From Escherichia coli (GTDB taxonomy: Bacteria > Pseudomonadota > Gammaproteobacteria > Enterobacterales > Enterobacteriaceae), in NCBI RefSeq assembly GCF_003018235.1, contig NZ_CP027437.1: a stretch of DNA of 64,000 nucleotides. One strand, given 5' to 3'. The notes under the pieces were generated by a model that worked only from the letters and a program-made list of their open reading frames with translations, was not told the origin of the DNA and made no database searches. The translations under genes were made by a program, and so were the position numbers. This document shows positions 59,245 through 63,136 of this stretch, one piece after another; position 1 is the stretch's first letter, and each line of letters starts with the position of its first letter.

Positions 59245-61283
59245 AAATGGCAGAAGAAAAGAATCAGGAATATGCATATGTATTTCCGGTAAAAAACGAA
59301 GCCGCCAGAAAACGCCTGGGTTTTGCGCATGGCTTTTACTGGAAGAGTGATTGCTCACAGGCGAGAGTGTTGCTTCGGGCGAATGTTGCCATGCTGGATG
59401 CGGGTTTTGAACCGGAGGATTTCAAAAAGCCTGTACGTGTTAATTTCCCGGTGGTGAACGAACTCCCAGCGGAAGGTGTTTTTGATACGGAATTTTGCCA
59501 CCTGTATGTACCGGGCGGTGAAGACGGCAAGACGATGGTGTATATCGACGCTGTAAAACAGGAGGCAGACAAGGAAAAAAACAACGTAGCCAGTAACACC
59601 AACGTCAACGGCGAAGATATGACTGAGATTGAGGAGAGCATGCTTCTGCCGATTTCCGCTCAGGAGTTGCCAGTTCGCTGGCTGGCGCAACACGGGAAGG
59701 AGAACCCCGTTACTCACGTTTCCAGAGACGAACTTCAGGCTTTACATGTTGCACGGGCGGAAGAATTACCGGCAGTTACTGCACTGGCGGTTTCCCACAA
59801 AACAGGCCTGCTCGACCCGCTGGAGATCCGCGACCTTCACAAACTGGTGCGTGATACTGACAAAGTTTTCCCTCATCCTGGCAATTCAGACCTGGGGCTC
59901 TTGACTGCTTTTTTTGAAGCATACCTGAATGCTGACTACACCGATCGCGGTCTGCTGACAAAAGAATGGTGCAAAGGAAATCACATATCCCGCCTGGAAC
60001 GTAAAAAAATACAACCAGAGAGCGCAGAACCGCTACGTGCAACCAGGGAAAGACCGCGGCGTAGTGAAAAACCAACCTTCAGAACGATTAATTATGAAAT
60101 CGCCTGTGCTTTATGCCCGGGTGCGGACTGTCATGATTTACGTCCGGTGGTGAATTCAGCGAAGAAACTGATGGCTGACGGGGATGAAAGATGGCGGGCA
60201 TGGTCGACATCTCTTGGCATTACTGAAGGGATTAAAAACTGGGACAGAAAAACGATTTTTGACATGGTCAGTCAGGCTCCGTCACATGTCACAACGGGGT
60301 CAGCAGAGGCGCGCAGGGAGTGGATTGAAAACTTTCTGATTGCACGTGGTGTGCGTGATCCGGAGTGGGCTGAGCCGCTTGTATGCGTTTCCGTACCGGA
60401 ACATGAAGATAATCTGGAAAGAGTTCGCGGTGCAGGAAAACGTCTGCGGAAGCTTGAGAATAGTGATTGCACATTTCAGGCAGACAACGGTTCTGGGGAG
60501 GCTGAGGTGGTTGAAGCGGACGAAAGCAAAGCAACGTCATCTGCTGAAATTCAGGATGCCGATAAATTACTGGCCGCTTACCGTGGTGAATATGTTGAAG
60601 GGATTAGCGACCCGAATGATCCGAAGTGGGTGAAGGGGATCCAGAGACGCGATGATGAGGACCAGGATCAGGCTGAAGCGGAACAAGACGACCAACACGT
60701 GGAACGGAACAGCCCAGATGCGAGACAAAACGAGCCTGATACGGAACAGAATGAGCAAGGAGCACTGCAGGGACCGGAAAAAGTCTGCGACACCTGCGGA
60801 CAGGACGGAGGTGGAAAATGTCCGGATTGCGGTTCTGTCATGGGGGATAGCACATACAGTGCCGTTTATGGCGGGGATCGAGAGGAGTCAGCGTATGTGG
60901 CAGAGCATGGTGCTTTGAATAATCAGAGCAAAGTTACAGTTGGCGAGGTCATGGAGATCATGAAAGCGGTTAAGCCAGCCGTTCATGTTGATGCTGAAGG
61001 GGAAACGGAAGAGATAAACGGTGATCAACTATCACTGCAGACTGAAAATAAGGATGACCGGTCATCACGGAAAGCGTCAGAAGATGTGCCCATGTTTATC
61101 AGTGAGACCGTTCTCCATAAGGAGGATGGTGAGGCAAATATGAATATCTGTGAGTTGGTGAACATGTTGCATCAGCAACAGGAAATGCTGAAAGAAATCC
61201 GCTCAACTCAGGCCCGCTTTATGGGCGCGATTGTAGCCATGCTTTCGGTTATTTCAGGGGGAGAGCAGGTAGGACATGAGTAA
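59241..61283 (+). CDS. Large uncharacterised protein (680 aa) with acidic central region and C-x2-C-x7-C-x2-C zinc ribbon
   Basis: Long ORF, start overlaps upstream stop; CDTCGQDGGGKCPDCG motif; no HUH/rolling-circle or helicase motifs found by eye. Confidence 0.65.
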   Translation: MKMAEEKNQEYAYVFPVKNEAARKRLGFAHGFYWKSDCSQARVLLRANVAMLDAGFEPEDFKKPVRVNFPVVNELPAEGVFDTEFCHLYVPGGEDGKTMVYIDAVKQEADKEKNNVASNTNVNGEDMTEIEESMLLPISAQELPVRWLAQHGKENPVTHVSRDELQALHVARAEELPAVTALAVSHKTGLLDPLEIRDLHKLVRDTDKVFPHPGNSDLGLLTAFFEAYLNADYTDRGLLTKEWCKGNHISRLERKKIQPESAEPLRATRERPRRSEKPTFRTINYEIACALCPGADCHDLRPVVNSAKKLMADGDERWRAWSTSLGITEGIKNWDRKTIFDMVSQAPSHVTTGSAEARREWIENFLIARGVRDPEWAEPLVCVSVPEHEDNLERVRGAGKRLRKLENSDCTFQADNGSGEAEVVEADESKATSSAEIQDADKLLAAYRGEYVEGISDPNDPKWVKGIQRRDDEDQDQAEAEQDDQHVERNSPDARQNEPDTEQNEQGALQGPEKVCDTCGQDGGGKCPDCGSVMGDSTYSAVYGGDREESAYVAEHGALNNQSKVTVGEVMEIMKAVKPAVHVDAEGETEEINGDQLSLQTENKDDRSSRKASEDVPMFISETVLHKEDGEANMNICELVNMLHQQQEMLKEIRSTQARFMGAIVAMLSVISGGEQVGHE

Positions 61284-61497
61284 GTTAAGTGATGAAGCGT
61301 GTGATGTTTTTGAATGTCTGCTGGCATCAGAACGGAATACAGCACGGGGTGTGGCAAAAGAGTTACAGATATCTCCGGCAACTGCGGTTGAAATACTGAA
61401 ACGGCTGGAGGAAGAAGGGCTGGTAACACAACTGAATGGCTTCTGGTCTGTGCAGGAAAAGAAAAGCAACGGGAGTAAAAATGGAAAACATAGTTGA
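61276..61497 (+). CDS. Small winged-helix DNA-binding protein (73 aa)
   Basis: Start overlaps stop of 680-aa gene; wH-like ARGVAKELQISPATAVEILKRLEEEGLV. Confidence 0.5.
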   Translation: MSKLSDEACDVFECLLASERNTARGVAKELQISPATAVEILKRLEEEGLVTQLNGFWSVQEKKSNGSKNGKHS

Positions 61498-62284
61498 TGC
61501 CCTGAAAGCGATGGGTAAAGCCACGTCAGTGGAACTGGCTGCGCGTCTCCAGATCAGCCGTGAGGAAGTACTGAATGAACTCTGGGAATTGCGGCGCAGT
61601 GGTGTTGTGGATCAAAACTTACAGGTCTGGACACTGGCCAGCGATGGTGCGCAACGGGAACAAAAAACGCCTGCTGCGGTGTATCAGCGTGATAACAAGG
61701 AGGAGCGTAAATTACGTGAGGTCGTCAGTCGCCAGGAGCGAGCGCCACTGAATCGCAGTGATATTCTGTCCGCGTTTGCTCATTGTGAGGAAATGACCAC
61801 CGCGGAGATAGCAACAGCAGTGGGGCGCGCTGATAGTGTCAGGTCGTTGGTTTCCGCAATGGAAAAACTTTGTCGTACTGGTCTGGTAATCAAAATGGGG
61901 CAGGGTAAGGGGTGTAAGTGGAAACTGGTAAAAAAATCCGGTGAAAATTTACCAACAGTGCCAGAAACAGAGCCGGTAGCGCTGTCCGGTGGTAAATCTG
62001 AGTCTGCCGCTGTGGTGGTCGATTTGCCACAGCAGAAAACGCAGACCAAAACCAAACAAGAGACTGTGACGGACATTGTGCAGTCGCTGCCATCGTTTAC
62101 CGCAACGCGGTATGATGACCTGATTTTACCATCGCTGCATATGGCAAACCGCGAACTGCGTCGGGCGAAAAGTCATGTCCAGAAGTGGGAGCGAGTCTGC
62201 GCCGCGCTGCGGGAGCTGAACAAGCACCGGGATATTGTTCGACAGATTACTGATTCTTCCCGCCGGGTTGCATCGGAAAAGTGA
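61481..62284 (+). CDS. Tandem winged-helix protein (about 267 aa)
   Basis: ORF 61436..62284; probable start MENIVDAL; two wH-like segments. Confidence 0.5.
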   Translation: MENIVDALKAMGKATSVELAARLQISREEVLNELWELRRSGVVDQNLQVWTLASDGAQREQKTPAAVYQRDNKEERKLREVVSRQERAPLNRSDILSAFAHCEEMTTAEIATAVGRADSVRSLVSAMEKLCRTGLVIKMGQGKGCKWKLVKKSGENLPTVPETEPVALSGGKSESAAVVVDLPQQKTQTKTKQETVTDIVQSLPSFTATRYDDLILPSLHMANRELRRAKSHVQKWERVCAALRELNKHRDIVRQITDSSRRVASEK

Positions 62285-62722
62285 TTGCCGGAGGCGCTTA
62301 TGGCAAAAGTATTTACACAAGAAGAGCGGGAAAAAATTAAAGGGCAGGTTGTTGAGCTAGTACGCCGGAGTGGGCGCGAGACGTTACGGCAACTGGAAGC
62401 CAAGACAGGTGTGACAAGATATCTGATGAGCGTTCTCGCCAGAGAGCTGGTTGCCAGTGGCGATGTATACAACTCTGGTTACGGGTTATTCCCCTCTGAA
62501 CAGGCTCGTAAGGACTGGCAAAACGCCCGTAAAAAACTATCTAGGGCAAAGGTAAAAAAAACGGTTGTGGTTGATCCTGACCTTATCTGGTCATTACCTG
62601 ATGGAGAAATACGCCGCTACGACAGGAGCCTGAATATAATCTGTCGCGAGTGCCGGAAGAGCGAAGCTATGCAGCGTGTACCGGCTTTCTATCAGGGCAA
62701 TTTTCAGGAGGCGGTACTGTGA
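62285..62722 (+). CDS. Hypothetical winged-helix protein (145 aa)
   Basis: ORF abuts previous stop; wH-like LRQLEAKTGVTRYLMSVLARELVASGDV. Confidence 0.45.
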   Translation: MPEALMAKVFTQEEREKIKGQVVELVRRSGRETLRQLEAKTGVTRYLMSVLARELVASGDVYNSGYGLFPSEQARKDWQNARKKLSRAKVKKTVVVDPDLIWSLPDGEIRRYDRSLNIICRECRKSEAMQRVPAFYQGNFQEAVL

Positions 62723-63136
62723 GTGAAATTAGCTATCAGGCTTCAATTACCGCTGGCATTCGCATCAAAGGAGAGGAGCATGGAAATAAAACCAGAAGAT
62801 GAGTTAAGCAATATCGTTTTATTCCCGGTAAAAGAGGATGACCCTCGTAATCGGGTTAATTTTCTTTATGAGCCATCGGAAAGACCATATTGCCATCACG
62901 CTTCTGTCCGGGTTGACGAAAAAGAGCGTCAGGTCCGCTGTAAAATCTGCGGCGCAGTTGTGGAGCCATTTGACTGGATGCTCTCTGTGGCGAAAAGAGA
63001 AACCAGACTGGCAGATGATGTAAGGCTCTTGCGCCAGGAGGAACGGGAAAGGCGAAAAAATATAGAAAAGCTAATTCAGATTGAGCGTAACGCGAAAGCG
63101 CGGATACGCAGGGTGACAAAATACAGAACTGAATAA
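62723..63136 (+). CDS. Hypothetical protein with CHH...CxxC motif and basic coiled-coil tail (true start possibly MEIKPED)
   Basis: 137-aa ORF abutting previous stop. Confidence 0.45.
   Translation: MKLAIRLQLPLAFASKERSMEIKPEDELSNIVLFPVKEDDPRNRVNFLYEPSERPYCHHASVRVDEKERQVRCKICGAVVEPFDWMLSVAKRETRLADDVRLLRQEERERRKNIEKLIQIERNAKARIRRVTKYRTE

Follow-up and report, generated by a model that had tools for sequence, protein, structure and literature searches.

A ydaW-lygF accessory block of Rac-type lambdoid prophages, recombined into the early operon of a P2-like hybrid prophage of Escherichia coli

Four consecutive small genes at positions 61276-63136 of the window, by which is meant the whole 64,000-nucleotide (nt) stretch of Escherichia coli DNA analysed here (contig NZ_CP027437.1, assembly GCF_003018235.1), lie in the early operon of an integrated prophage and encode predicted winged-helix (wH) proteins followed by a predicted zinc-binding protein. 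An earlier note on this DNA regarded such a density of DNA-binding proteins as unusual for a P2 early operon, and suggested a regulatory or partition/replication-control cassette, or else a frameshifted larger gene. Sequence comparison identifies the block as the ydaW (DUF1627) - lygF (DUF977) - PHROG 1621 - PHROG 4659 accessory set of Rac-type lambdoid prophages. Rather than an oddity specific to P2, it is a common Rac-type lambdoid set brought in by recombination within ydaW. This identity and this history, taken together, are held with very high confidence. A role in countering exclusion systems, akin to that of lambda Ren, is put forward only tentatively, and the explanation as a whole, a compromise between the confidence in identity and history and that in function, stands at about even. 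The interpretation given in the earlier note is, overall, partly supported.

The genes of the block and those that follow it are listed below. Their starts were picked by reference to Shine-Dalgarno (SD) sequences and to how RefSeq annotates near-identical sibling prophages, the corrected start of ORF2 being the ATG at 61481, in place of 61436.

61276-61497, + strand: ORF1, 73 amino acids (aa), predicted stand-alone wH protein; its start overlaps the stop of a RecE-N-like ORF by 8 nt
61481-62284, + strand: ORF2, 267 aa, DUF1627/YdaW; reads in the +1 frame relative to ORF1, with which it shares 17 nt; preceded by a GGGAG SD
62300-62722, + strand: ORF3, 140 aa, DUF977/LygF; ATG at 62300 after GGAGG, with a 15-nt gap from ORF2
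62780-63136, + strand: ORF4, 118 aa, PHROG 1621, predicted zinc ribbon and long helix; ATG at 62780
63188-63400, + strand: ORF5, 70 aa, PHROG 4659 (3.4e-50)
63436 to beyond 64000, + strand: ORF6, more than 188 aa, PHROG 924 and 660

ORF2 matches DUF1627 (Pfam PF07789) with an E-value of 2.2e-45 over model positions 8-155 of 155, and aligns end to end with PHROG 630 (4.6e-88; 2199 homologues). ORF3 matches DUF977 (Pfam PF06163) at 1.2e-28 over positions 1-134 of 134 and has 853 homologues, the best 120 of which are at least 87% identical to it. Phage records call the homologues of ORF2 ydaW, and those of ORF3 either lygF or 'Ren-like exclusion protein'. Viral contigs were scanned with the DUF1627 alignment, and the synteny counts cover the 80 loci returned. 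DUF977 lies 18-19 nt 3' of DUF1627 in 78 of these loci. ORF4 is present in about 20 of them, and in about 10 it stands 60 nt after ORF3. Within the phage collection, ORF2 to ORF5 match lambdoid, Rac-type and Stx phages only. At its native site, ydaW starts approximately 20 nt after the gene for a DnaC-like helicase loader in the early-right operon, co-oriented with ydaU and ydaV, as exemplified by L034 (whose loader matches NCBIfam PRK12377 at 8e-154), Rac-SA53, Shigella phage 75/02 Stx and K-12 Rac. The equivalent of this position in lambda is that of ren, which sits after P and overlaps its end.

The Rac prophage and Rac-SA53 (ydaU-ydaV-ydaW-lygF-rac19-ead) share with the window both Pfam families, their order and their 15-19-nt spacing. 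Rac-type LygF proteins are 87-98% identical to the product of ORF3, and at the DNA level the 3' 170 nt of ydaW, lygF, ORF4, ORF5 and ORF6 are approximately 96% identical between Rac-type prophages and the window. ORF3, ORF4 and ORF5 are also contiguous in L003, L013, L015-L017 and L022, and ORF5 and ORF6 accompany lygF and ORF4 in Rac-type prophages. Unlike in Rac-SA53, however, the block of the window follows a DEDDh exonuclease gene and the RecE-N-like gene rather than ydaU and ydaV, the 5' four fifths of its ydaW are another allele (52-61% aa identity), and ORF1 is extra. The exact combination of ORF1 to ORF4 was found in none of 5426 complete E. coli genomes (at least 80% coverage). Since 4285 of these genomes contain parts of the block, with a median of two copies, it is not a new kind of system, but a recombinant instance of a very common, named prophage module.

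The element that harbours the block is a prophage adjoining pheA/pheL, with a P2/P88-like region of integrase, repressor and cox (68% at the nt level; Cox family annotation). The array is encoded on the + strand, divergent from the integrase and from the repressor, the latter as the earlier note had described. Matches to the early-operon genes of P88-like phages are confined to int, repressor and cox. Sibling prophages possess ORF1 and ORF2, with other genes downstream of them; two of these siblings (L001, L002) continue with the P2 gpA replication endonuclease, a lambdoid Q antiterminator, tRNAs and lambdoid lysis genes. No sequenced phage in the collection has the same hybrid arrangement. 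In addition, DUF6645 was seen at an Stx-like position in the siblings of this hybrid pheA prophage.

A DNA alignment (A5) shows the window to track the sibling pheA prophages up to 62111 and the Rac-type prophages from 62194 onward, which delimits the following feature:

62111-62194, no strand assigned: recombination crossover zone, inside the conserved 3' end of ydaW (alignment A5)

The BLAST pieces agree with these limits, as H7 and related sequences cover 62290-64000 at 95.9%, and the similarity to H1 and H2 ends there. The switch of affinity inside the 3' end of ydaW, together with the matching boundaries of the BLAST pieces, therefore identifies the array as recombinant: a resident ORF1 and ydaW allele is joined to a Rac-type ydaW tail, lygF, ORF4, ORF5 and ORF6. 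The Rac-type 3' part entered the early operon of the pheA-integrated P2-like/lambdoid hybrid by homologous recombination within the 3' end of ydaW. Approximately 130 bp at this end of the gene (about 62080-62240, corresponding to the C-terminal helix) are nearly identical in all alleles examined, and the remainder of ydaW has a protein identity of 52-66% between them. This stretch is likely a 'linker' for homologous recombination, such as has been proposed in connection with lambdoid mosaicism.

The structure of the ORF2 product was modelled by AlphaFold2 (AF2) on a 33-sequence alignment, which yielded three ordered regions:

61481-61636, + strand: ORF2 wH1, residues 1-52; AF2 H4-11, E13-15, H16-23, H27-39, E43-46, E49-52
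61754-61927, + strand: ORF2 wH2, residues 92-149; AF2 H92-101, E104-106, H107-114, H120-133, E136-139, E146-149
62114-62278, + strand: ORF2 C-terminal long helices, residues 212-266; AF2 H212-248, H250-266, pLDDT 73-82

The model thus contains two canonical H-b-H-H-b-b winged helices, the first with a pLDDT of about 90 over residues 4-52 and the second with 72-78 over residues 92-149, and disordered linkers at residues 55-87 and 155-195. Together with alignment A2, it fits a family architecture of wH1, linker, wH2, acidic/Pro-rich linker and conserved C-terminal helix. The C-terminal helices are the most conserved part of the family and include a run of invariant columns in this alignment, in which the recognition helices are variable, as allelic cassettes.

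Foldseek comparison of the model with the PDB gave a probability of 1.0, at the level of domains only, for MarR, ArsR/SmtB, AspA, PapI and Zalpha winged helices. By profile, wH1 matches the NCBIfam ArsR/SmtB HTH at 4.4e-6 and, among PDB chains, AsnC at 3.9e-6 and an iron-dependent repressor (8pvt) at 7e-6; the designed-PPR matches that topped the PDB-profile list were disregarded as sums of weak repeat matches. For wH2, residues 91-152 match the wH part of the PADLOC Csa3 profile at 3.2e-5. Single-sequence searches of the PDB with ORF2, ORF3 and ORF4 gave no significant match. While the MarR, ArsR-SmtB and AsnC-Lrp factors share with ORF1 and with wH1 of ORF2 the H-b-H-H-b-b fold and significant profile matches, the common part is a DNA-binding core of approximately 55 residues, and their dimerisation and ligand-binding helices are not in ORF1 or ORF2. 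Nor is the MarR family proper matched, with its protomer of about 140 aa and its dimerisation helices: ORF1 has 73 aa, and the domains of ORF2 stand between disordered linkers. A Zalpha reading of ORF2 wH1 and of ORF3, which Foldseek and PDB-profile matches had raised, was likewise rejected. Although Zalpha chains gave the lowest Foldseek rmsd (0.8-1.2 A, at 25-31% identity), their profile E-value is 0.069, as opposed to 4e-6, so that the AsnC and iron-dependent-repressor chains score far better, and the key residues are unconserved: the position of the Zalpha Tyr is W, R or K across alleles, there is no conserved Asn, and the wing Trp (W50) alone is invariant.

The YdaW protein of E. coli K-12 (b1361) resembles ORF2 in its DUF1627 assignment, its wH1 and wH2 (37% identity over 183 residues) and its position after ydaV. 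It differs in being truncated at 186 aa, so that it consists of the two wH domains only and is without the conserved C-terminal helices; in K-12 Rac, the C-terminus of ydaW was lost together with lygF and the genes downstream.

For ORF3, two regions can be delineated:

62336-62506, + strand: ORF3 N-terminal predicted wH, residues 13-69 (profiles and PMC2686095), followed by a basic linker
62627-62692, + strand: ORF3 Ren-like motif at the C-terminus, residues 110-131; 55% identity with residues 71-92 of lambda Ren (E 1e-6)

The N-terminal segment of ORF3 is predicted to be a winged helix: the ORF3 profile matches the GntR-type wH chain 4ham at 2e-4, and DUF977 had earlier been assigned this fold through HHpred and COMPASS (PMC2686095). 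ORF3 also matches PHROG 142, the family that includes lambda Ren, at 1.5e-46 over positions 1-115 of 116. Besides this family, the two proteins have in common the N-terminal wH and a C-terminal motif, SxN(I/L)xxxECRxSxAMxRVxAxY, with 55% identity over 22 residues, and the position of ren just after the replication genes is the native position of lygF in Rac-type and Stx phages. In contrast to ORF3, lambda Ren has 96 aa and is without the 40-residue basic linker; neither BLAST nor tblastn detected similarity over the whole length of the two proteins, the direct comparison being significant for the C-terminal 22 residues only. In the window, lygF does not follow replication genes; it stands after ydaW within a P2-like early operon, a long way from gpA. 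A C-terminal motif common to ORF2 and ORF3 was considered and rejected (pairwise BLAST E 0.004, profile-profile E 0.54).

ORF1 matches the Pfam models TrmB (1.8e-7), MarR_2 (1e-5) and HTH_24 (1.8e-5), with seven wH families at 4e-4 or better, and its match to the MarR model is limited to positions 11-48 of 59. It aligns with PHROG 630 over positions 4-62 (E 7e-8) and is 28-39% identical to the wH1 domain of ydaW. ORF1 is, by these alignments, a lineage-specific paralogue, that is, an extra copy, of this domain. Profile-profile comparison by hhalign relates wH1 to wH2 of ORF2 (92% probability, E 7e-7), residues 15-67 of ORF3 to ORF2 wH1 (90%, E 1.7e-6) and ORF3 to ORF2 wH2 (66%, E 5.8e-5); these results and the alignment of ORF1 with wH1 identify the four wH segments as mutually paralogous at the sequence level. 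The count of four given in the earlier note therefore holds, those of ORF2 being seen in the AF2 model, that of ORF1 in its Pfam matches and that of ORF3 in its profiles and in the published assignment.

The note had also placed a putative zinc-binding coiled-coil protein after the wH genes, and the predictions for ORF4 agree with this:

62885-62962, + strand: ORF4 CxH...CxxC predicted zinc ribbon, residues 36-61 (profile, alignment, model)
62966-63130, + strand: ORF4 residues 63-117, one helix of 55 residues whose end is basic (AF2)

Residues 36-73 match the Pfam family Zn_Ribbon_TF (TFIIB type, PF08271) at 2.6e-4, and C38, H40, C54 and C57 show little or no variation among 70 homologues of 25-49% identity. 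In the AF2 model (mean pLDDT 83), short beta-hairpins precede the helix of residues 63-117, which has a pLDDT of 96-98. Foldseek ranks the TFIIB zinc ribbon 1pft first (probability 0.96, 27 columns, 2.0 A); a whole-chain structural analogue was not found in the PDB. ORF4 is thus a predicted TFIIB-type zinc ribbon with four putative metal ligands, albeit one that differs from this type in that its first knuckle is CxH, not CxxC, and in that a 55-residue helix ending in a basic ERNxKARxRR stretch is fused to it. Its distant homologues lie in generic phage nin-like neighbourhoods, on contigs that are short or uninformative.

In pairwise comparisons, all four genes have a dN/dS of 0.11-0.35, indicative of purifying selection. 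Given these ratios and the thousands of homologues, the genes are taken to be real, and a reading as pseudogenes or spurious ORFs was rejected on the same ratios. With wH folds present in models and profiles, and the zinc-ribbon prediction holding as well, the observation on which the earlier note was built is confirmed.

With regard to function, a Ren-like, counter-exclusion role for the block is favoured by analogy, as a possibility rather than a probability. The products would be early, non-essential accessory proteins. The wH proteins among them would combine a small, nucleic-acid-binding wH module with a disordered linker and a C-terminal helix or motif for oligomerisation or partner binding, and ORF4 would be a dimeric zinc-ribbon/coiled-coil adaptor within the same accessory set. 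Like lambda Ren, these proteins would shield the phage's own development from exclusion or abortive-infection systems, whether these belong to the host or to resident prophages; a part in switching phage transcription, in partition or in controlling replication is not envisaged. The functional lead is the presence of ORF3 in PHROG 142 together with lambda Ren, and the C-terminal motif common to both. Ren allows lambda to evade Rex exclusion. This escape was reportedly described by Toothman & Herskowitz in 1980 and by Thomason & Court in 2022, the second of which is reference 31 of PMC11077077. In addition, a genome-wide screen placed the K-12 ydaW gene in the validated class of 'blockers' of RcaT, the retron-Sen2 toxin (bioRxiv 10.1101/2020.06.22.160242). 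An accessory role fits because the block moves irrespective of which type of replication module is present, and it is this independence, the kinship with Ren and the retron-blocker result that together suggest counter-exclusion. A PADLOC scan gave wH-domain matches to Csa3 and CasR only; since PADLOC holds defence systems and not anti-defence proteins, its silence is uninformative.

Several considerations weigh against this proposal. We know of no member of DUF1627, DUF977 or PHROG 1621 for which a biochemical activity has been demonstrated, and to our knowledge the mechanism of lambda Ren itself is not established. The link to Ren consists of a remote-homology PHROG and a 22-residue motif. 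The wH is, moreover, the commonest bacterial DNA-binding fold, and the predicted structures are equally compatible with a plain transcriptional role. ORF4 is found in only about one quarter of ydaW-lygF loci, and hence need not act with YdaW and LygF. The retron result, finally, stems from a single overexpression screen, concerns a truncated protein and is possibly indirect (bioRxiv 10.1101/2020.06.22.160242).

A plain transcription-factor role is nearly as likely as counter-exclusion, and is itself doubtful. The wH proteins would then be transcriptional or developmental regulators that bind phage or host promoters and bias lysis-lysogeny or host physiology. Other small early lambdoid proteins, namely Ea22 and the products of the exo-xis genes, have reported effects of this kind, and the genes considered here lie in early operons, beside Ea22-like genes in the siblings. 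In sequence, the wH segments are closest to the DNA-binding domains of AsnC/Lrp, DtxR-type iron-dependent repressors, ArsR and MarR, and YdaW has been included among predicted E. coli transcription factors as MarR-like (PMC9308461). Conversely, the repeats found over 56-64 kb were short and chance-like, with no iterons and no operator-like or centromere-like arrays, and thus no repeated operator-like sequences near the genes. Neither the minimal wH units of some 55 residues, which are without the dimerisation helices of MarR and ArsR, nor the distribution of conservation in YdaW, which peaks at the C-terminal helix while the recognition helices vary, is what this role would predict.

The counter-exclusion proposal can also be widened, though in this form it is unlikely. 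YdaW, LygF, lambda Ren and ORF1 would constitute one superfamily on a single paralogous wH module, and would serve as a modular counter-defence toolkit. Its wH units would bind whichever nucleic acid or nucleoprotein triggers RexAB, a retron msDNA-toxin complex or similar abortive-infection systems, the variable wH alleles would mirror an arms race, and the zinc-ribbon/coiled-coil ORF4 would be a further component.

It is less likely still that the products are replication accessory or control proteins, which would aid or modulate origin firing or helicase loading. Such a role is suggested by the native position of ydaW, which directly follows the gene of the DnaC-like loader and has the orientation of ydaU and ydaV, and by the overlap of ren with the end of P. 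Yet to judge from the siblings, the block here lies kilobases upstream of the unrelated P2 gpA rolling-circle endonuclease system, and in PhiR46_1, a phage with a primase gene, lygF follows a short gene annotated as exodeoxyribonuclease VIII. Furthermore, no iterons were found within the block or in its vicinity, K-12 Rac has lost the C-terminus of ydaW and everything downstream of it, and lambda ren is known to be dispensable for replication. The replication-control or partition cassette envisaged in the earlier note is thus not supported, in that no partner NTPase, centromere-like repeats or iterons were found and the replication modules next to the block are of two unrelated kinds, with a DnaC-like loader at the native site and P2 gpA in the siblings.

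A further possibility is that ORF1 and ORF2 are one gene, encoding a product with three wH domains, that has been broken by a frameshift, whether as a pseudogene or through programmed +1 frameshifting or transcriptional slippage. The earlier note's idea of a frameshifted larger gene does touch on something real, because sibling prophages differ from the window by a single base in the following A-run, within the 61436-61497 dual-frame region:

61462-61465, + strand: A4 run with the single-base split/fused difference (alignment A1, column 188)

In these siblings (11 contigs), a third allele (P0005) encodes a 340-aa, in-frame fusion of ORF1 and ORF2. The split form is found in the window, L001, L002, L004 and L007, and the fused form in L005 and L006. 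However, the split form is held in two alleles that are a dS of about 0.5 apart with a dN/dS of about 0.2, and ORF1 itself is under comparable constraint (dN/dS 0.15-0.23). Every allele, even the fused one, retains a separate SD and ATG for ORF2, and more than 2000 DUF1627 proteins begin at the Met of ORF2. In terms of dS, the fused allele and the ES5-type split allele are sisters, with the window allele outside, so that the fusion is the derived state. The frame of ORF2 relative to ORF1 is +1, not -1, and when split and fused alleles were aligned, no slippery site was conserved, and no prfB-like or other +1 motif was present; the A-runs are 4-5 nt long and differ between the split alleles (GAAAAGAAAAGC vs GAAGAGAGAAAT). 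A programmed frameshift at 61436-61497, where the earlier note had proposed to look for signals, was therefore rejected, as the frame is +1, the split alleles share no motif and no A-run exceeds 5 nt. Given two conserved split alleles, the SD and ATG of ORF2, the +1 frame and the lack of a conserved motif, the arrangement is neither a pseudogene nor a programmed frameshift, and the split form is taken to be functional. The single-gene explanation is accordingly very improbable, even if the one-base fusion in the siblings speaks for it.

ORF1 is rare: among 5.8 billion proteins, only two clusters of 73 aa and the one fused form were found, all of them within the pheA prophage lineage and 3' of the RecE-like gene, and ORF1 is absent from the 80 viral DUF1627 loci returned. 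A separate DUF1627 homologue of 296 aa (P0031) has an internal, partial duplication of wH1 (EVLNELWELKKNGVVDK ... EVLNELWELKKAGFVDK). Together with the fusion of ORF1 and ORF2, this sequence shows the number of wH units to be evolutionarily labile in the DUF1627 family.

Lastly, a plasmid-like partition cassette with ParR/AspA-type centromere-binding wH proteins and partners is so improbable that it was rejected, for although the pNOB8 AspA protein (4rs8, 5k5q) appears in the domain-level Foldseek list at probability 1.0, the same list holds every kind of wH (MarR, ArsR, Zalpha, PapI), so that the match reflects the fold only, and the element is an integrated prophage that encodes an integrase, without a ParA-, ParM- or TubZ-type NTPase among the products of the operon and without centromere-like repeat arrays.

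The region around the block contains the following further features:

55164-56168, - strand: integrase; the array is divergent from integrase and repressor
58449-59024, + strand: DEDDh 3'-5' exonuclease, first gene of the operon, followed by a 72-aa ORF
59241-61283, + strand: RecE-N-like ORF, 680 aa, directly upstream of ORF1

The + strand from 58.4 to 64 kb of the window forms one tightly packed operon. Within the array, the genes are separated by overlaps of 8 nt and 17 nt or by gaps of 15-57 nt, and each has an SD. Over 56-64 kb, promoter-like sites were as frequent as expected from shuffling, and no convincing internal promoter or terminator was seen. A + strand terminator-like match inside ORF4 (62839-62858) has a weak consensus, and the other such sites on this strand lie upstream of the array, apart from a 5-pair stem at 61746-61760 within ORF2. 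Because of the tight packing, the SD at each gene and the lack of a convincing internal promoter or terminator, the array probably shares a transcript with the exonuclease and RecE-like genes that precede it, one that starts in the early promoter region facing away from the repressor.

Terminator-like hairpins as such are about twice as frequent over 56-64 kb as in shuffled sequence (16 observed, 7.8 +/- 2.8 shuffled). On the + strand, those at 57241-57258 and 57656-57672 are the strongest, the latter coinciding with the 3' end of an isrK-like, Hfq-binding sRNA (RF01394, 57600-57677, + strand), which scores 49 bits, one bit under gathering. A C4 antisense RNA (RF01695) at 57788-57875 on the + strand, upstream of the array, scores 74 bits (E 1.7e-13), and the siblings annotate Icd-like, Ash and 'derepression' proteins in this region. 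Such matches suggest a P1/P4-type RNA immunity or antitermination layer within the P2-like early operon.

The RecE-N-like ORF, intact at 680 aa in the window, matches positions 4-422 of 877 of NCBIfam PRK09709 and is without the C-terminal nuclease domain. It contains a CxxC...CxxC motif (VCDTCGQDGGGKCPDCG), and the DEDDh 3'-5' exonuclease upstream of it is a stand-alone protein. RefSeq flags this ORF as a pseudogene in the siblings, and it is intact (677-704 aa) in three further alleles with 69% aa identity. The exonuclease and the RecE-N-like ORF may constitute a split or alternative recombination module.

The block thus links four genes of the DUF type as one conserved accessory module at the 'ren position', with wH domains that are paralogous, and the window documents the transfer of this module between unrelated phage backbones, from a Rac-type lambdoid prophage to a P2-like hybrid. 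The split and fused forms of ORF1 and ORF2, one base apart, represent gene fission or fusion at the level of domains in action, and in annotation neither form is to be labelled a pseudogene. For prophage genes that are abundant and functionally obscure, the module provides a concrete lead, be it Ren-like counter-exclusion or retron blocking. Were the view of a common counter-defence toolkit true, a function would be assigned to genes present in approximately 80% of E. coli genomes.

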